From: Candidatus Saccharimonadota bacterium
GTDB taxonomy: Bacteria > Patescibacteriota > Saccharimonadia > Saccharimonadales > Saccharimonadaceae
NCBI GenBank assembly: GCA_002421785.1
Contig: DIRZ01000002.1
Span: forward strand, 240,001-272,000
Direction: 5' to 3'
DNA length: 32,000 bases
Shown here: piece after piece, positions 9,668-31,271 of the stretch
Numbering within the stretch: the stretch's first letter is position 1
How the letters are laid out: each line of letters starts with the position of its first letter
Program-made: the position numbers and the translations under genes
Notes under the pieces: model-generated
Told to the model about the DNA's origin: nothing
What the model saw: the letters and a program-made list of their open reading frames with translations, nothing else
Databases searched by the model: none

Positions 9668-9755
9668 GGAGAGGTGACCGAGTGGTTTAAGGTAACGGTC
9701 TTGAAAACCGTCGTGGGGCAACTCACCGCGAGTTCGAATCTCGCCCTCTCCGCCA
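9668..9755 (+). tRNA. tRNA-Ser (anticodon UGA), CCA encoded
   Basis: Acceptor GGAGAGG/CCTCTCC, anticodon stem acggt/accgt with loop cTTGAaa, long variable arm, T-loop GTTCGAATC, 3' GCCA. Confidence 0.9.
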
Positions 9756-9763
9756 TGCAATGA

Positions 9764-9784
9764 CCAGCCGAACGGCTGGTTTTT
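9764..9784 (+). terminator. Hairpin plus T-tract after tRNA-Ser(UGA)
   Basis: ccagcc-gaac-ggctgg followed by ttttt. Confidence 0.65.
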
Positions 9785-9787
9785 GCA

Positions 9788-9930
9788 TGGCGGAGTGTGT
9801 TTTTGAACTCGCGGGTTTTGCAGGTATGCAAAACATACCGCTGTGTTCGGTGGAGTGAAGGCGGAAACGAGAGCTTGCTCTCAGGTTTCGCCAAGCAGAA
9901 AAGCGTAGCGCCACCTCGCCCTCTCCGCCA
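9788..9930 (+). ncRNA. tRNA-Ser trailer element, copy A (tRNA-derived structured element; candidate ncRNA or att scar)
   Basis: Contains two long hairpins. The arms of hairpin 1 are an inverted and a direct copy of the T-arm of the adjacent tRNA. The last 16 nt (9915-9930) are identical to the tRNA 3' end (9740-9755). See findings. Confidence 0.45.
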
Positions 9931-9934
9931 CATT

Positions 9935-9965
9935 AAAAAAGACTTGGTACATGCCAAGCCTTTTT
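9935..9965. terminator. Bidirectional terminator (trailer element A on plus, pilin P7 on minus)
   Basis: aaaaaa-gacttggtacatgccaagcc-ttttt: a hairpin flanked by an A-tract and a T-tract. Confidence 0.7.
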
Positions 9966-9994
9966 AATTTTGGAATACGTAACCAAGTGGATCG

Positions 9995-10417
9995 CTAGCG
10001 AGTCGATGCCCCATAGGCGCTCGTACCGGCAGTATTGGACGCGGTTGGCACAAAGCTGTTAACGACAAAGTTGACCGCTGCGTAGGCAAGGATGGCAATA
10101 ATCACACCAACAAGCGCGTAAAGAATCGTGTTTTTGGCTGCTTGTACCTGGGAGGCATCTCCACCAGAGATAACATAGCGGAGGCCACCAATAACAATCA
10201 TGATAACGGCGATAGCACCCACAATAAAGAGCAAAACGCTACTGATTTTTGAAAACACACCTGTATCGCCGAAAAGATCATTCGGCTGCTGGGCGCCACG
10301 TGCGGATGCGGCGCCATCGGCGATGGTTCCGACGGCATGAGCCTGGGCAACATCAAGCGCGAGAACAGTAAAAGCTGCGAGGACATATGTGCTAAATAAT
10401 TTTAGTGAACGTTTCAT
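9995..10417 (-). CDS. T4SS pilin-like small membrane protein P7 (dispersed seventh paralog)
   Basis: Start trimmed to ATG 10417, with AGGAG 7 nt upstream. Signal peptide MKRSLKLFSTYVLAAFTVLALDVAQAHA, core GGLRYVISGGDASQVQAAKNTILY between two TM helices. No Cys pair; Ser/Thr/Ala-rich C-terminal tail. Confidence 0.65.
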   Translation of the reverse strand: MKRSLKLFSTYVLAAFTVLALDVAQAHAVGTIADGAASARGAQQPNDLFGDTGVFSKISSVLLFIVGAIAVIMIVIGGLRYVISGGDASQVQAAKNTILYALVGVIIAILAYAAVNFVVNSFVPTASNTAGTSAYGASTR

Positions 10418-10552: not shown

Positions 10553-10645
10553 GGAGGAGTACCCAAGTGGCTGAAGGGGACGGTTTGCTAAATCGTTAGT
10601 ATGGGGAGACCTGTAGCGGGAGTTCGAATCTCCCCTCCTCCGCCA
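10553..10645 (+). tRNA. tRNA-Ser (anticodon GCU), CCA encoded
   Basis: Acceptor GGAGGAG/CTCCTCC, anticodon loop tTGCTaa, long variable arm, GTTCGAATC T-loop. Confidence 0.9.
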
Positions 10646-10651
10646 AGAAAT

Positions 10652-10677
10652 GACGAGCCCATCTGGGCTCGTTTTTT
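10652..10677 (+). terminator. Rho-independent terminator after tRNA-Ser(GCU)
   Basis: acgagccc-atct-gggctcgt followed by ttttt. Confidence 0.75.
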
Positions 10678-10719
10678 CCTGTCTTTCACCACTAATGGCG
10701 CTCATGCTATACTAGCGGT

Positions 10720-11430
10720 ATGCAACCACAACAGCCCCAGGACCAGCAGCCCCAGGACCAGCAGCCCGAGACATGGCAAACCCCGGCACAGGCGACGCCT
10801 CAGGCGCCAATTGAAGTTCCCCAAAGTGTGCCTACTGCTTGGGAATCATCTGTTGCGGAGCCTGCGGCACCCCAAGCGCCAGAGCAGACATATGAACAGC
10901 CCGAAGGGCCGAACGCCACGGCAGAAGGCACCGAAACCCCTACTGACGAGACAGCCGATTCGCCCGATGACGGCGCAGTGATTCGCTGGCAAGCAGCTGA
11001 GTATTTGCACCAGGACCAATCACCACTGTGGTTTGTGGTGATGGGTATTATCGTTGTGGTGTTGATGGCGATTGCGTACCTATGGATGAACTCTATCACC
11101 TTTGCTATTTTGATACCGGTCATGGCGGTGGCACTTGTGGTGTATGTAAAACGACCACCAGCAACCAACAACTACACGCTGAGTCGCAAGGGTATTCATA
11201 TTAATGACCAGCTGTACCCTTTTGACACCTTTAAATCATTTGGCGTCATTTCACGTGGCGGGAACCACTCTGTCGTCCTGACGCCGCGCAAGCGTTTTCA
11301 GCTGGGACATACTATTTACTTTAGCGAAGAGCTTGGTGAACAGATTGTTGACATGTTCGCAGCACGGTTACCGATGAAAGACGTTTCACCGGATATGATT
11401 GATACGCTTTTGTCTAAACTACGCCTCTAG
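10720..11430 (+). CDS. Membrane protein with Gln/Pro-rich N-terminus, two TM helices and a small C-terminal domain; unknown function
   Basis: 236 aa. Tandem PQDQQ repeat, TM pair (LWFVVMGIIVVVLMAIAYLW / FAILIPVMAVALVVYV). The ATG lies 6 nt after TGC-TATACT (10705-10713), suggesting a leaderless transcript. Confidence 0.6.
   Translation: MQPQQPQDQQPQDQQPETWQTPAQATPQAPIEVPQSVPTAWESSVAEPAAPQAPEQTYEQPEGPNATAEGTETPTDETADSPDDGAVIRWQAAEYLHQDQSPLWFVVMGIIVVVLMAIAYLWMNSITFAILIPVMAVALVVYVKRPPATNNYTLSRKGIHINDQLYPFDTFKSFGVISRGGNHSVVLTPRKRFQLGHTIYFSEELGEQIVDMFAARLPMKDVSPDMIDTLLSKLRL
10732..10770 (+). repeat. 15-nt in-frame tandem repeat (2.6 copies)
   Basis: cagccccaggaccag occurs at 10732-10746 and 10747-10761, followed by a partial copy. 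It encodes the PQDQQ units. Confidence 0.8.
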
Positions 11431-11503: not shown

Positions 11504-11580
11504 GCACCCGTAGCTCAGCTGGATAGAGTGCTTGCTTGCGGAGCAAGAGGTCGTACGTTCGAATCGTATCGGGTGTACCA
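11504..11580 (+). tRNA. tRNA-Arg (anticodon GCG as read), CCA encoded
   Basis: Acceptor GCACCCG/CGGGTGT, D-arm GCTCAGCTGGATAGAGT, anticodon stem cttgc/gcaag with loop ttGCGga, T-loop GTTCGAATC. Confidence 0.8.
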
Positions 11581-11587
11581 AATAATG

Positions 11588-11615
11588 AAGGTTTCCTATC
11601 AGGAAGCCTTTTTTA
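11588..11615 (+). terminator. Terminator after tRNA-Arg
   Basis: aaggtttcc-tatc-aggaagcctt followed by ttttt. The stem has one mismatch. Confidence 0.55.
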
Positions 11616-11620
11616 TTGGA

Positions 11621-12088
11621 TTAAGAGAGATTTTTTGGGACAAACATGTTTCGCAACGAAAGAAAATCGTCTTTGAGTGATGCGCTATCATCAACGATCG
11701 ATTCGATATAGGAGCTATTTTTACCCCTTATTACATCCTTGGCTATCAACATAAAAACGATTGGAATAGGTGTTGCCCGAACTTCGGCAACCCGTATGAT
11801 TTTATCGGAAAAGTCCTTAATCTGTGACCGTTCCGTAATAGTGAGTGGGCGGGGAAAGAGACGACCAGATAGGTACCAGGCCGCTGCGGCTAGTGCGACA
11901 ATGACAAGCGTAACCGGCATTAATACGACGAGCAGGAGCCACCAGAACGGGTGCACCCACCCGCCTAGATAAAAAGTAAGGAGGTAAAGGGCTGTAATAA
12001 CTGACCCGACAATCCAAGCAGCGGGGATAAAAGCGCGACGAAATACGGTCGCTGTCAGGGCGCGGAATGTTTGGATTGTTGCCTTCAT
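11621..12088 (-). CDS. Small membrane protein, unknown function
   Basis: Trimmed to ATG 12088 (155 aa) because the upstream part of the 232-aa track ORF runs through trailer element B and a terminator. Two TM helices. TACACT lies 7 nt upstream of the ATG, suggesting a leaderless start. Confidence 0.5.
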   Translation of the reverse strand: MKATIQTFRALTATVFRRAFIPAAWIVGSVITALYLLTFYLGGWVHPFWWLLLVVLMPVTLVIVALAAAAWYLSGRLFPRPLTITERSQIKDFSDKIIRVAEVRATPIPIVFMLIAKDVIRGKNSSYIESIVDDSASLKDDFLSLRNMFVPKNLS

Positions 12089-12140
12089 ACTCCCTAGTGT
12101 ACTTGATTGCACGGCACGGTCATGTGATATTTCGCACAAT

Positions 12141-12166
12141 AAAACGACCCTTGGTAGGGTCGTTTT
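12141..12166. terminator. Terminator closing the tRNA-Ser(CGA)/trailer unit
   Basis: aaaacgaccc-ttggta-gggtcgtttt. On the minus strand the hairpin is followed by ttttatt. Confidence 0.65.
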
Positions 12167-12169
12167 ATG

Positions 12170-12316
12170 TGGCGGAGAGGAAAAGATATCGCTCCGCTCC
12201 TCCGCTTGCTGGACGGAAAAACACCCTCGGTACTTTTCCGTCTGCGCGGCGCTCCGCCGAACTCCTGGCTCGCTTTGCCCGTCGGGTAAACCCCAGGAGT
12301 TCAAGTTCCTTTGTCG
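12170..12316 (-). ncRNA. tRNA-Ser trailer element, copy B
   Basis: Same two-hairpin architecture as copy A. A 10-bp perfect inverted repeat gaactcctgg/ccaggagttc (12259-12268 / 12293-12302) is derived from the T-arm of tRNA-Ser(CGA). The terminal 12 nt (12170-12181) are identical to the tRNA 3' end (12356-12367). Confidence 0.45.
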
Positions 12317-12355
12317 CATTAAATATACCTATCGCAAGGATAGATATATTTAATG

Positions 12356-12447
12356 TGGCGGAGAGGAGGAGATTCGAACTCCTGGTGCAGTTTTAGCCAC
12401 ACACCGCTTTTCGAGAGCGGCACCTTCAACCACTCAGACACCTCTCC
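12356..12447 (-). tRNA. tRNA-Ser (anticodon CGA), CCA encoded
   Basis: Reverse complement gives GGAGAGG...ccgct-cTCGAaa-agcgg, a long variable arm, GTTCGAATC and CCTCTCCGCCA. Confidence 0.9.
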
Positions 12448-21517: not shown

Positions 21518-22549
21518 TTAATAGTAGGATTCGTGATGCTTAGTAAACCAGAGTCGGCGAACGACTTTTTCGGCAAATTTCATCCAGAAACGTGACTTCC
21601 AGCCGACGATTGGCACCTCAAGCGCACCGACGTAATCGGTCACTGTTTTATTGAAGCTCGTTTTGAAACGACCCAGGCCATAGAACCGGTGGTTCGGGTT
21701 GGTGATTTCGGCAGCAGACGGTGTTCCGCATAAATCGTGCGCCACACTGCCCTTACTTTTTGCCCACTCGATGACGCGCCATTGTAAGTAGTGGCTTGCG
21801 CCGTATGTCACTTTGTCGCGGATACTCGCGCCGTCTTTGTAGGTGCTTTTATCGCTATAAATTAACGCGTAGGCACCAGCAACGAGCTTGCCCTCAAAGT
21901 AGGCGAAGAATAACTGTCCTTGCCCAGCTTCGCTGTAGCGGCGATAAAAGTTTCGGTAGTAGCCGGGGTTGCGGATGGCGAATCCCGCACCCTGCGAGGT
22001 TTCGACAAATAGCTGGTACATTTTTTCGCAGTTTTCAGGGGTGCTGTCTACTAGCTCTACCGTCACGCCATCGCGCTCCGCACGTTTAATCGCATGGCGG
22101 CCCTTTTGTGGCAGGCCTTTCATGACGGCTTCGAGGTCAGGGCGTAAATCGACAACAACCGTCGAACAGTTGTACTGAATAGGGCGGGTTTGGATAATTG
22201 GCAGGGTACTAAGGTCGGTACCAAGCGGCAATTCCGGCTCGATTTTAATGGTGAATACTCCTTGCTTCTTAGCAAAAGGAATCAGTTCATCGAGCACTGC
22301 CTGTAACTGCTCAGTCGTAGCAACGCCAGGACCCTTGGGAATATACCAGATGAGGCCGAGGAGAGGAATGTGCTTCTCCATGGCGACCATCGCCGCAGTA
22401 TCGCACACGATATGGCGTACTTGCCATCCACTTGCTCGTTTTAAATCGGTAAATATAATACCCTGCAAGACGTTGCCGCCATCAGGGTTCTGGGGGACAA
22501 TAGTGTCCCACTGGGTAATTTCGTCAGGAGTGGCAAATCGTATATTCAT
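21518..22549 (-). CDS. FemAB/MurM family peptidoglycan interpeptide-bridge aminoacyltransferase
   Basis: Approx 343 aa. YIPKGP, KGRHAIKRAERDGV, FAYFEGKLVAGAYALIY, GASHYLQWRVIEWAKSKG. The ATG at 22549 lies 8 nt after TGC-TACAAT (22566-22558). Confidence 0.7.
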   Translation of the reverse strand: MNIRFATPDEITQWDTIVPQNPDGGNVLQGIIFTDLKRASGWQVRHIVCDTAAMVAMEKHIPLLGLIWYIPKGPGVATTEQLQAVLDELIPFAKKQGVFTIKIEPELPLGTDLSTLPIIQTRPIQYNCSTVVVDLRPDLEAVMKGLPQKGRHAIKRAERDGVTVELVDSTPENCEKMYQLFVETSQGAGFAIRNPGYYRNFYRRYSEAGQGQLFFAYFEGKLVAGAYALIYSDKSTYKDGASIRDKVTYGASHYLQWRVIEWAKSKGSVAHDLCGTPSAAEITNPNHRFYGLGRFKTSFNKTVTDYVGALEVPIVGWKSRFWMKFAEKVVRRLWFTKHHESYY

Positions 22550-22574
22550 CACTCCCTATTGTAGCAAAGTCCCG

Positions 22575-30119: not shown

Positions 30120-30211
30120 GGAGAGGTGTCCGAGTGGTTGAAGGAGCACGCCTGGAAAGTGTGTGTGCGGGGCAACTCGTACCGTGAGTTCGAATCTCAT
30201 CCTCTCCGCCA
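30120..30211 (+). tRNA. tRNA-Ser (anticodon GGA), CCA encoded
   Basis: GGAGAGG...cacgc-cTGGAaa-gtgtg, long variable arm, GTTCGAATC, CCTCTCCGCCA. Confidence 0.9.
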
Positions 30212-30216
30212 AATTC

Positions 30217-30250
30217 AAATGACGAGGCCCTAGCCTGGTCATTTTAATTT
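30217..30250 (+). terminator. Hairpin plus T-rich tract after tRNA-Ser(GGA)
   Basis: aaatgacgagg-ccctag-cctggtcattt (one mismatch) followed by taattt. Confidence 0.45.
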
Positions 30251-30400
30251 GCACGCGATGGACTGAGGTTTGAACTCACGGGTTTTGCAAAGCAAAACGA
30301 CCGTGCGGTTCGGCGTAGCGCCGTGAAATTCTGGAAAAGCTAGCTTTTGCCAGAATGAGCCAGTGGAGGAGCGAGCTCGCGAGCGATATCTCATCCTCTC
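30251..30400 (+). ncRNA. tRNA-Ser trailer element, copy C (3' end degenerate)
   Basis: Same architecture as A and B. Hairpin 1 is gaac-tcacgg-gttttgc/gcaaaac-ccgtg-gttc (30272-30311); hairpin 2 is 30328-30357. The terminal 13 nt (30388-30400) are identical to tRNA positions 30194-30206, then the sequence diverges before GCCA. Confidence 0.4.
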
Positions 30401-30404
30401 TGTA

Positions 30405-31271
30405 TTAGATTTGCGCTAGCTGTGTGAGTGCGCTCGCCTCACGATCATGTCGAGAATATACTCTAAACAAAGGCATCGTTACTTCTCTGGGTATGTCGAA
30501 GAGCGTCTTTCCGTCAGTAGTTGCGCTTACGCGTACGTCACGCGCCTGCACATCGCCCCTGTTGTTTATTTGTTTGAAGCGTTCTACGGCGTGTCGTATC
30601 GCGTCTGAAAGTGAGCATGCTGGAATGATTTCACAGTAGTCATTCTCACCTTCTCTTCGCCATGCGGACTCGATACTCACTTGGTACATATTGATTGGCG
30701 TGGTTTCGCTCATCACCACACTTCGTTGACGGCGGAGTTCATCTAGCGTTGCCTCGGTGGCTGCGATGTGTTCATCCAATTTATGGAGTGAGTAGCCACG
30801 GATGTCAAACTCATCAGTTTTGCTAGTGAGAGCCTGTCGGTATTCTTGGTCTAGGACATCCACTAGGTTACGAACCTGGTGAAGGTCTGCGGGGTCAACA
30901 ATCAAATGGCCCTTTCCGTCTGCAATATGTTTGTTCGTAGTATCAAAGACAATCCAAATCGCAGGGTCACGTTGGTCAGGAGTTTTAACATATATATTGC
31001 AGAGCCCGTAGTCTTGAATGTTGCGGCCTGCAAAAACAGTTGCAAAGTCAGTTTCAGATTCGCTGCTGATGTTGAGTTGAACTTCGGGGGTGAACACAAA
31101 GGTATTGTCGGGGGCCACTTCTGTCGGCTCGCCATACCTGTCTACGAGCATATTGCTCGCCGCAATCAGCACGCTCGGGTCCCGTAGTGCATCATGCTGA
31201 CCGGTGTCTTGATCTATTCTTTGATCGTCCAAAGCAAGGCGCTCGCCAGTTTTAAATTTTGTCAATGGCAC
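30405..31271 (-). CDS. Hypothetical cytoplasmic protein, no recognisable motifs
   Basis: 288 aa. GTG start lies 7 nt after AGGAG. Own promoter at 31297-31325. Confidence 0.5.
   Translation of the reverse strand: MPLTKFKTGERLALDDQRIDQDTGQHDALRDPSVLIAASNMLVDRYGEPTEVAPDNTFVFTPEVQLNISSESETDFATVFAGRNIQDYGLCNIYVKTPDQRDPAIWIVFDTTNKHIADGKGHLIVDPADLHQVRNLVDVLDQEYRQALTSKTDEFDIRGYSLHKLDEHIAATEATLDELRRQRSVVMSETTPINMYQVSIESAWRREGENDYCEIIPACSLSDAIRHAVERFKQINNRGDVQARDVRVSATTDGKTLFDIPREVTMPLFRVYSRHDREASALTQLAQI

Follow-up and report, generated by a model that had tools for sequence, protein, structure and literature searches.

Gene-less palindromic elements behind tRNA-Ser and tRNA-Arg genes of Saccharibacteria, with arms that match the local tRNA

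What is the hairpin-rich sequence that follows several tRNA-Ser genes in a Saccharibacteria genome, an RNA that is kept for its fold or a piece of DNA that travels? The question is raised by a 32,000-nucleotide stretch of Candidatus Saccharimonadota bacterium (contig DIRZ01000002.1, positions 240,001 to 272,000; the whole stretch is called the window below), for which the original prediction described a ~145-nt element after the genes for tRNA-Ser(UGA), tRNA-Ser(CGA) and tRNA-Ser(GGA). That element is real, and its three copies (A, B and C) are homologous and hairpin-rich, each repeating the T-arm and the 3' end of its own tRNA. We lean, with limited assurance, to the view that the copies belong to a family of non-autonomous palindromic DNA elements, which have no recombinase of their own and enter or recombine at the T-loop and 3' end of tRNA genes. 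Selfish or neutral DNA is a more probable description of them than a functional RNA of a new kind.

Both ARAGORN and Rfam place five tRNA genes in the window, and two of them, tRNA-Ser(GCU) and tRNA-Arg(GCG), are without the element:

9668-9755, plus strand: tRNA-Ser(UGA); its positions ~47-76 (segment S, that is, x plus y) are the template for the arms of element A.
10553-10645, plus strand: tRNA-Ser(GCU), followed by a terminator only.
11504-11580, plus strand: tRNA-Arg(GCG), followed by a terminator only.
12356-12447, minus strand: tRNA-Ser(CGA), template for the arms of element B.
30120-30211, plus strand: tRNA-Ser(GGA), template for the arms of element C.

By reading many copies side by side, we found that the locus has the order tRNA(...x y) - t1 - S-bar - h - x' - U - y' - (t2). 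Here, x is tRNA ~47-57 (two bases, the 5' strand of the T-stem and TTCG), and y is tRNA ~58/59-76, comprising the rest of the T-loop, the 3' strands of T-stem and acceptor, and GCCA. The t1 segment is a long A/T-flanked palindrome resembling a bidirectional terminator, and it runs without a break into S-bar, an inverted copy of y plus x (tRNA ~47-76), so that the tRNA 3' third, t1 and S-bar make up a single long inverted repeat; this is clearest in window element A and in the loci L022 and L008 (loci fetched for comparison carry L numbers). After the short hairpin h comes x', which pairs with the x-bar part of S-bar to form hairpin 1. The module U, constant and ~65-85 nt long, consists of GCG(T/A)AGCG, hairpin 2, AGCGGAGGAG, hairpin 3 and CGAT, and it occupies the T-loop place of a pseudo T-arm formed by x' and y'. 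The tRNA segment from the T-loop to CCA is thus a direct repeat at both ends of the unit, in the manner of attL and attR at islands that integrate into tRNA genes. In element A the parts are as follows:

9756-9787, plus strand: t1, tgca..ccagcc gaac ggctgg ttttt gca, the centre of the S/S-bar inverted repeat; the same hairpin is t2 in the relative L042.
9788-9815, plus strand: S-bar, the 3' third of the tRNA in inverted and decayed form; it supplies the 5' arm of hairpin 1.
9816-9837, plus strand: h, the inner hairpin ttttgca-ggta-tgcaaaa.
9838-9850, plus strand: x', an imperfect direct copy of tRNA 47-57 (ccgc tgt GTTCGG) and the 3' arm of hairpin 1.
9851-9914, plus strand: U, with hairpin 2 at 9860-9892 and a degenerate hairpin 3.
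9915-9930, plus strand: y', an exact 16-nt repeat of the T-stem 3' strand, the acceptor 3' strand and GCCA.
9931-9973, plus strand: t2, a second A/T-flanked terminator hairpin.

Element B is read on the minus strand (~12321-12170), because the CGA gene lies there; element C is read on the plus strand:

12137-12355, minus strand: element B with its terminators (model score 99 bits); its L042 ortholog has a 94% identical U. Parts: t1 12355-12317; S-bar 12316-12291; h 12290-12269; x' 12268-12257; U 12256-12188; AT plus y' 12187-12170 (14/16); t2 12169-12137.
30212-30405, plus strand: element C (model score 103 bits). Parts: t1 30212-30251; S-bar 30252-30282; h 30283-30300; x' 30301-30313; U 30314-30387; AT plus y' 30388-30405 (12/16, the CCA side decayed); no t2.

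Most of the layout first proposed for the three copies can be read directly in the sequence. The frame of hairpin 1, TTGAACTCNNGGG, occurs exactly three times, at 9803, 12304(-) and 30270, against 0.38 occurrences expected with one mismatch allowed, and the second half of the frame, GTTCGGYGKAG, is exact at 9845, 12262(-) and 30308. The paired outer stem of A (gcgg 9811-9814 with ccgc 9838-9841), hairpin 2 at 9860-9892 and a second terminator after A and B are likewise present, and the 3' end of A equals that of its own tRNA in 16/16 positions (9915-9930 = 9740-9755). The end repeats claimed for B and C do exist, with counts of 14/16 and 12/16. The proposed pairing of tggcggag (9788-9795) with the 3' end of A also holds, but it is simply the start of S-bar and not a separate feature, since the tRNA 3' third recurs at 9788-9815, inverted and decayed, as a continuation of the terminator palindrome. 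This S-bar contains TGGCGGAG (the reverse complement of CTCCGCCA), TTGAA as a mutated T-loop, and CTCGCGG, the exact reverse complement of cognate tRNA 47-53 (7/7). The U of A is a diverged variant with GCAGAAAAG in place of GCGGAGGAG, and the h module of the TTTTGC..GCAAAA type is found again at other tRNA genes and in other genomes. In all three loci a terminator hairpin with a T-run separates the tRNA from the element.

How far does the element extend beyond the window? A pattern scan over 185,579 species genomes returned 15 stretches, four of which are true copies, all from Saccharibacteria and directly behind a tRNA-Ser gene on the same strand. A metagenome scan added 12 element-bearing loci with 9 different copies, now including tRNA-Ser(GCU). 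The remaining loci (11/15 in the genome scan and 4/16 in the metagenome scan) were rejected as chance pattern matches; they have no adjacent tRNA-Ser and reach at most 24 bits, several giving no match at all. The scores come from a covariance model that was made from 15 copies and then run on the fetched loci. It recovers A with 82, B with 99 and C with 103 bits (E = 1e-24 to 1e-30) and finds extra copies, among others behind tRNA-Ser(UGA) in L019, tRNA-Ser(GCU) in L008 and tRNA-Arg(GCG) in L021. With syntenic loci added, there are 24 strong matches of 56-135 bits, all in Saccharibacteria. They stand behind the tRNA-Ser genes UGA, GCU, CGA and GGA and behind tRNA-Arg(GCG), always on the tRNA strand, and each lies just 3' of the tRNA gene or, in L040, at the start of a contig that cuts the tRNA off. 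No strong copy was found away from tRNA genes in ~220 kb of fetched loci.

The copies also agree in form. The mutated T-loop forms TTTGAA, GTTCGG and CGATAT are common to almost all of them, and tRNA end and repeat lie 159-174 nt apart in the 10 distinct copies whose repeat can be recognised and 171, 170, 168 and 169 nt apart in four more loci, giving a unit period of 175-190 bp. The unit of ~180 bp holds no open reading frame (ORF), and the flanking genes vary from locus to locus; a small ORF inside the element was considered and rejected, as stops and indels differ between copies. Rfam 15 reported only tRNAs, both in a gathering scan of the window and in E-value scans of A, of L022 and of the second family described below, other matches being far below threshold and reflecting long hairpins. 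Full-text literature searches gave no published description of such elements, which agrees with the earlier statement that no described family has this layout. No parent (autonomous) element was seen in the fetched loci or in a scan of a viral contig collection. A viral origin was dropped, the four matches of the core pattern in that collection being chance matches and none matching the model.

A second family has the same layout, position and size with a different core. It stands behind tRNA-Ser(CGA) in L021 (2128-2320, plus strand) and L030 (2338-2150, minus strand) and is a structured core of ~150 nt, GAGGGTGAGA-hairpin-GCAAGG ... GCGGGGTCGCGGAA ... GTGAC, unrelated to the first and without an Rfam match; its T-loop-to-CCA repeat is exact over 21 nt.

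The arms of the units track the local tRNA. The left arm is the exact reverse complement of cognate tRNA 47-53 in 16/23 copies, and the cognate tRNA is the best match in 22/23, so the earlier observation that each element follows its own tRNA is borne out on the larger set. The y repeat is complete (16/16) in 8/23 copies and reaches 21 nt in the second family and in the Arg copy of L008. Units of the first family stand behind tRNA-Arg(GCG) in L021 and L008, with a remnant in L030, and in these Arg-associated copies the arms have switched to the T-arm and acceptor sequence of tRNA-Arg. Their U module retains (A/G)CGGAGGAG, which is unable to pair with the Arg acceptor strand. The GGAGGAG of U can pair with the acceptor 3' strands of tRNA-Ser, and an acceptor-like helix had therefore been considered as a general mimic of a tRNA minihelix; we rejected this idea because the Arg copies keep GGAGGAG yet cannot pair it. 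Three further ideas on the origin of the parts were dropped as well. A closing stem GAGAT:ATCTC that would complete a cloverleaf is missing in L005, L025 and B, and the left flank is simply a decayed inverted tRNA copy; a constant left flank borne by the element, with a hybrid T-loop junction, does not fit, as the flank follows the local tRNA (L022, L021-Arg, and L006 versus L003); and the inner hairpin has no similarity to the variable or anticodon arm of a tRNA.

The core behaves differently from the arms. Similarity among U modules cuts across tRNA identity and at times follows the genome: the U of L022-GGA is closest to that of L003-UGA (0.88), the U of L008-UGA to that of window element C (GGA), and the U of L008-GCU to that of L008-Arg (0.76), the last two sharing the hairpin-3 stretch GAGGAGCGACAGGCCTTGGCCTGGAGCGAT in opposite orientation. 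The U copies show mosaic similarity to one another. Core and arms thus form a mosaic, and cores have been exchanged between tRNA genes. Moreover, U is found in either orientation between the same flanks, the cases being the intact proximal Arg unit of L008, the remnant of L030 and an extra, degenerate copy of L027. The inverted U (L008 5624-5245, minus strand; L027 330-456) lies between two pseudo T-stem halves, an arrangement that recalls the flip and flop of T-shaped hairpins.

Is the element needed where it occurs? Occupancy was sampled in four loci that had been fetched via a neighbouring protein, independently of the element. Among 15 tRNA loci in relatives, 5 are filled, 2 hold remnants and 8 are empty; the call to look at orthologous loci is answered in this way by a mixture, with the element at one third of them. 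The "empty" sites of L044 and L046 retain a few S-bar bases after the terminator. Of the examined contigs that share an identical pilin protein, nine keep element A (the window's own, L040, L050, L054, L056 and L060-L063). In L038, whose pilin protein is also identical, x'-U-y'-t2 is gone, and in L039, again with the identical protein, only t1, "TGGC", a decayed y' and t2 are left, S-bar through U having been lost. The deletion ends lie inside repeats, and only imprecise deletion variants were seen. The element is dispensable.

Copies are not only lost and truncated but also gained and stacked in tandem. Behind tRNA-Arg in L008 there are two tandem units, the proximal one with a perfect 21-nt repeat and the distal one with a decayed repeat. 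L042, with a neighbouring protein 76% identical to that of the window and an identical tRNA-Ser(UGA), has the orthologous unit, but the window's t1 hairpin sits there as t2, and a new t1 precedes the unit. In L022 and L030, t1 and t2 are paralogous. Genes have entered the same places: a 962-aa P-type cation ATPase gene (L042 2251-5139) follows the Ser-UGA unit and is absent from the window, and an ArsR-like gene with two ORFs (L030 5103-6571) lies between tRNA-Arg and the unit remnant, which is itself flanked by decayed Arg 3' ends. The tRNA 3' flanks act as small hotspots of gene insertion.

Does the structure speak for an RNA? In an alignment of 24 copies, standard pairs fill 93% of cells versus 81% in shuffled alignments, double-sided changes number 69 versus 22, 12 pairs have compensatory changes, and slid controls are 23-44% paired; this alignment was fitted to the model, and palindromic DNA predicts an equal result. 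Hairpin 1 has conserved U.G pairs at its base, with C-G instead in some copies such as L019. Absolute folding energy is better on the tRNA-sense strand in 18/18 cores, and G.U pairs number 74 versus 20. However, the element sequences are G+T-rich, and z-scores from dinucleotide shuffling are -6.4, -3.9 and -2.6 for the antisense strands of A, B and C versus -3.2, -2.8 and -1.5 for the sense strands; inverted cores show no strand asymmetry. Because the shuffle z-scores disagree with them, the sense-strand energies and G.U counts were not used as evidence for an RNA. Modelled as a circle, the unit would be highly self-complementary, with 66-76% of bases predicted to pair and z = -6 to -9 in 6/7 units tested; the Arg unit of L008 has z = -2.6. 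No sigma-70-like promoter site was found inside or before the elements, no cloverleaf or minihelix holds across the copies, and ARAGORN detects no tRNA in the element. The structure has thus been selected or inherited as a palindrome: the covariation of the stems is real but is equally predicted by palindromic mobile DNA.

These observations bear on the first interpretation of the locus, according to which conserved structure points to a maintained fold of an RNA specific to tRNA-Ser. As stated, this is unsupported, for the element also stands behind tRNA-Arg, its core occurs in both orientations, most homologous tRNA loci of relatives are without it, partial deletions occur in strains with identical pilin, a strong terminator lies in front of it with no promoter-like site of its own, and the antisense strand folds as well as the sense strand or better. 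The alternatives offered beside it, a MITE-like (miniature inverted-repeat transposable element) copier of its target and T-loop-targeted integration, went in the right direction.

If the copies are mobile palindromic DNA, the unit y - t1 - S-bar - h - x - U would join the tRNA gene at the T-loop, by a recombinase supplied in trans or by recombination anchored on the conserved tRNA sequence. The incoming unit would bring or regenerate a working tRNA 3' end and terminator, and the older 3' end and terminator would be displaced downstream, as happens with classic islands that integrate at tRNA genes. The hairpins may be cis-acting sites, or folded-strand structures, that the movement of the unit needs, which we propose as the reason for their covariation. 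Such an insertion model would account for the direct repeat, the second terminator and the tandem stacks with older distal copies, as well as for the permuted terminators of L042 and the S-bar stubs at "empty" sites. The arms may come to match each tRNA by gene conversion from arm to arm inside the palindromes, by templated synthesis at insertion, or by way of a folded single-strand intermediate that has to mimic the target duplex.

Several points weigh against this interpretation. No recombinase, excised circle or clean-junction pair of empty and filled sites was found in the loci examined, so that it is from distribution only that we infer mobility. Standard integration at the T-loop leaves unexplained why the inverted arm and x' match the local tRNA and how a core moved from Ser to Arg without a chimeric tRNA. 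The y repeat is 16/16 in eight copies whose other arms have decayed, which may reflect selection on an RNA 3' end or use as an attachment (att) site. The strong hairpin covariation would also fit a sense-strand RNA, and such an RNA would show the same energies and G.U counts. Finally, the sole integrase-bearing island that we saw uses another site and has no sequence in common with the units. This island, ~6.3 kb long (L062 2540-8930; GCA_032229745.1 JAVTWT010000002.1), lies at the extreme 3' end of tRNA-Arg(GCG), at the homologue of window ~11580-11600, and its host strain has an identical pilin protein. Its genes code for a large serine recombinase of 587 aa (Resolvase, Recombinase and Zn_ribbon_recom domains), whose ORF overlaps the tRNA gene on the opposite strand, an RVT_1 reverse transcriptase, a bAvd-like protein and a 388-aa protein, and from this content the island looks like a diversity-generating retroelement (DGR) cassette. 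The 8-bp core GTACCAAA stands at both of its ends. The expectation that relatives might carry an integrase island at these sites is partly borne out, since an island at tRNA-Arg exists; because of its 8-bp core at the CCA end and its unrelated sequence, it would not leave the scar seen in the window, and an origin of the units from it is ruled out on the same grounds.

Other explanations were weighed on the same evidence. It is unlikely that the units are transcribed by read-through from the tRNA promoter into a structured and functional RNA whose 3' end is made by tRNA-type processing and which could act as a tRNA-like RNA or an antisense RNA to the T-arm in tRNA maturation, as a decoy, or as a substrate of SerRS, the CCA enzyme or FemAB. 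The covarying helices, in which L019 has C-G for the conserved U.G pairs at the foot of hairpin 1, the lower absolute energy of all 18 sense cores, the exact y with GCCA in eight copies followed by a tRNA-style terminator, the ability of GGAGGAG to pair with Ser acceptor strands and the nearby genes for FemAB-type tRNA-dependent transferases all suit such an RNA. They are set against a T-run terminator hairpin between tRNA and element, the lack of a promoter-like site, the GGAGGAG that Arg copies keep and cannot pair, the inversion of U in otherwise intact copies, patchy occupancy with deletion variants in contigs of identical pilin, antisense z-scores equal to or better than those of the sense strand, and the lack of a consistent downstream gene. 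Improbable, too, is an origin without dedicated mobility, in which replication would switch templates (snap back) at the terminator palindrome and leave a tandem-inversion duplication, with gene conversion then spreading h and U. The continuity of S-bar with the t1 palindrome, the alternating orientation of three copies, the paralogous t1 and t2 of L022 and L030, the S-bar bases at the "empty" sites of L044 and L046, the deletions that end inside repeats and the mosaic similarity of U, suggestive of conversion, are what this process would produce; but a local duplication cannot create the same h and U at five tRNA genes in many species, and neither the mutated T-loop forms common to almost all copies, nor the size constrained to 175-190 bp, nor a second core family of equal size and position is accommodated by it.

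A more exotic possibility, which we consider quite improbable, is a mobile element without genes whose travelling form is a folded single strand, either DNA or RNA with reverse transcription, and which a recombinase of the host or a helper inserts at the T-loop. In that case S-bar and x..y would zip into a rod that mimics the double-stranded T-arm and acceptor of one tRNA gene, with U branching off at the crossover point, and the arms would be re-templated on each new tRNA. Very doubtful, finally, is the idea that larger integrase-bearing islands or prophages once occupied these sites, lost everything but their ends and left the copies behind as inert scars. A tRNA 3' segment repeated in direct orientation is what attL/attR classically look like, and islands do use the tRNA 3' ends of this lineage, as the serine recombinase and DGR of L062 and the cargo in L030 and L042 illustrate; however, independent decay would not yield one architecture of ~180 bp with a homologous core at many loci and in many species, the L062 island has an 8-bp core and unrelated ends, and the scan of the viral contig collection gave no carrier of the core.

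Does the element then belong to a known class? T-loop sites are reportedly one of the sublocation classes of tRNA-gene-targeting integrative elements distinguished by Williams in 2002, and integrase-less derivatives of such islands are known as cis-mobilizable elements (CIMEs). Like these, the units lie immediately 3' of an intact tRNA gene, have a T-loop-to-CCA direct repeat at both ends, are polymorphic for presence and absence, and accrete in tandem with the older distal copies more decayed. Unlike these, they measure only ~180 bp with no integrase within or adjoining, add an inverted tRNA 3' third and a second T-stem 5' strand that both match the local tRNA, and carry one core at five different tRNA genes; an excised form was not seen. 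Small palindromic repeats of bacteria include MITEs, the Correia elements of Neisseria, the Rickettsia palindromic elements, REP/BIME and ERIC. The likeness is that all are short, gene-less, hairpin-forming, multi-copy and patchy, that structure outlasts sequence, and that they are often misannotated within ORFs. In those families the terminal repeats are fixed, the target duplications short and the sites dispersed, whereas every unit here stands behind a tRNA gene, its "terminal repeats" are copies of that tRNA and change with it, so that there are no fixed terminal inverted repeats, and the duplicated target is 16-21 nt.

Systems that recombine or replicate through folded strands offer partial parallels. 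Among folded single-strand recombination sites are the attC of integrons and the attP(+) hairpin of CTX-phi; in both, structure is kept over sequence. The units do contain a palindromic mimic of the target duplex, and their arms could, by analogy, fold into a duplex imitating tRNA gene 47-76. The topology S - X - S-bar - loop - S is that left by integration of a hairpin att site, with tandem and apparently irreversible copies. However, no integron integrase, Xer/dif context or single-stranded DNA replicon was seen, and the U branch at the crossover has no counterpart there. Parvoviruses such as adeno-associated virus (AAV) have T-shaped inverted terminal repeats in flip and flop orientations, and x - U - y can likewise form a stem with two small hairpins, the two-hairpin module being found in both orientations; there is, on the other side, no evidence of a linear hairpin-ended replicon or of Rep, and the inversion may equally come from recombination between short inverted flanks. 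With tRNA-like and tRNA-binding RNAs (T-box leaders, tmRNA, YrlA, viral tRNA-like structures) the units share T-arm and acceptor sequence and a CCA end, but they have no Rfam match, no acceptor-like helix in the Arg copies and no regulated downstream gene that we could find. The bridge or seek RNA of IS110-type elements has guide segments that match the target, and its gene lies beside that of a DEDD/serine-type IS110 recombinase; in the units, target-matching segments flank a constant scaffold, but no recombinase ORF adjoins any copy. Since at least one defining feature of each class compared is absent, the element fits no named family, and it apparently represents an undescribed family in bacteria of the Candidate Phyla Radiation (CPR), with target-tailored arms.

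The surroundings of the elements in the window are ordinary. The genes are the usual core set of Saccharibacteria (ValRS, TsaD, Mur ligases, FemAB, a ComF-like gene, a row of type IV secretion system pilin genes, HSP20 and ABC transporters), and the names on homologous proteins and loci are Candidatus Saccharibacteria or Saccharimonas. Pfam detected no recombinase, transposase or reverse-transcriptase domain among the 30 longest window ORFs that were scanned. Elements A and C run into convergent genes, and there is therefore no downstream gene for them to regulate. For A this gene is

9995-10417, minus strand: pilin gene, convergent on tRNA-Ser(UGA), with t2 of A just beyond its stop.

All tRNA genes of the window encode CCA, and each is followed by a hairpin between an A-run and a T-run, in the style of a bidirectional terminator. 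At several loci, even unit-free ones (L044, L046), the terminator palindrome reaches into the CCA and acceptor strand. The A/T-flanked hairpins of the window are

9756-9787, 9931-9973, 10646-10680, 11581-11615, 12137-12169, 12317-12355 and 30212-30251.

An ORF call of 232 aa (window 11621-12319, minus strand) starts inside t1 of B and spans the entire element B with its terminator. Judging from the sequence comparison, this call is probably an over-extension across element B, because the counterpart gene in the relatives L042 and L038 has 155-163 aa. Between tRNA-Ser(GCU) and tRNA-Arg(GCG), a conserved hypothetical protein of 236 aa has at its start a Gln/Pro-rich tandem repeat, cagccccaggaccag x2 (window 10730-10775), which gives a false terminator-like match on the minus strand. 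Genes of the FemAB family, aminoacyl-tRNA-dependent transferases of peptidoglycan synthesis, are kept near the tRNA-Ser cluster (window 21518-22552; L042 from 11480; L046 from 12005; L047 1-634), and this proximity is a possible link to the use of Ser-tRNA outside translation.

Saccharibacteria are epibiotic members of the CPR with genomes of ~1 Mb, in which little mobile DNA is expected. If the copies are mobile palindromic DNA, these bacteria carry a previously undescribed class of ~180-bp elements without proteins. The units mark hotspots of cargo (the ArsR-like gene with two ORFs, the P-type ATPase and the DGR-bearing island), they inflate ORF calls such as the 232-aa "gene" over element B, and they could serve as strain markers or as genetic landing sites in cultivable Saccharibacteria. 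Were they transcribed instead, they would be a new class of tRNA-linked RNA, and a unit that does travel as a folded strand would give an ultra-small CPR genome a naturally "programmable" module for integration by target mimicry. If the units do home to tRNA genes with arms tailored to each, standard integrase or transposase mechanisms do not account for this property, which hints at recombination that is templated or works through a folded strand.

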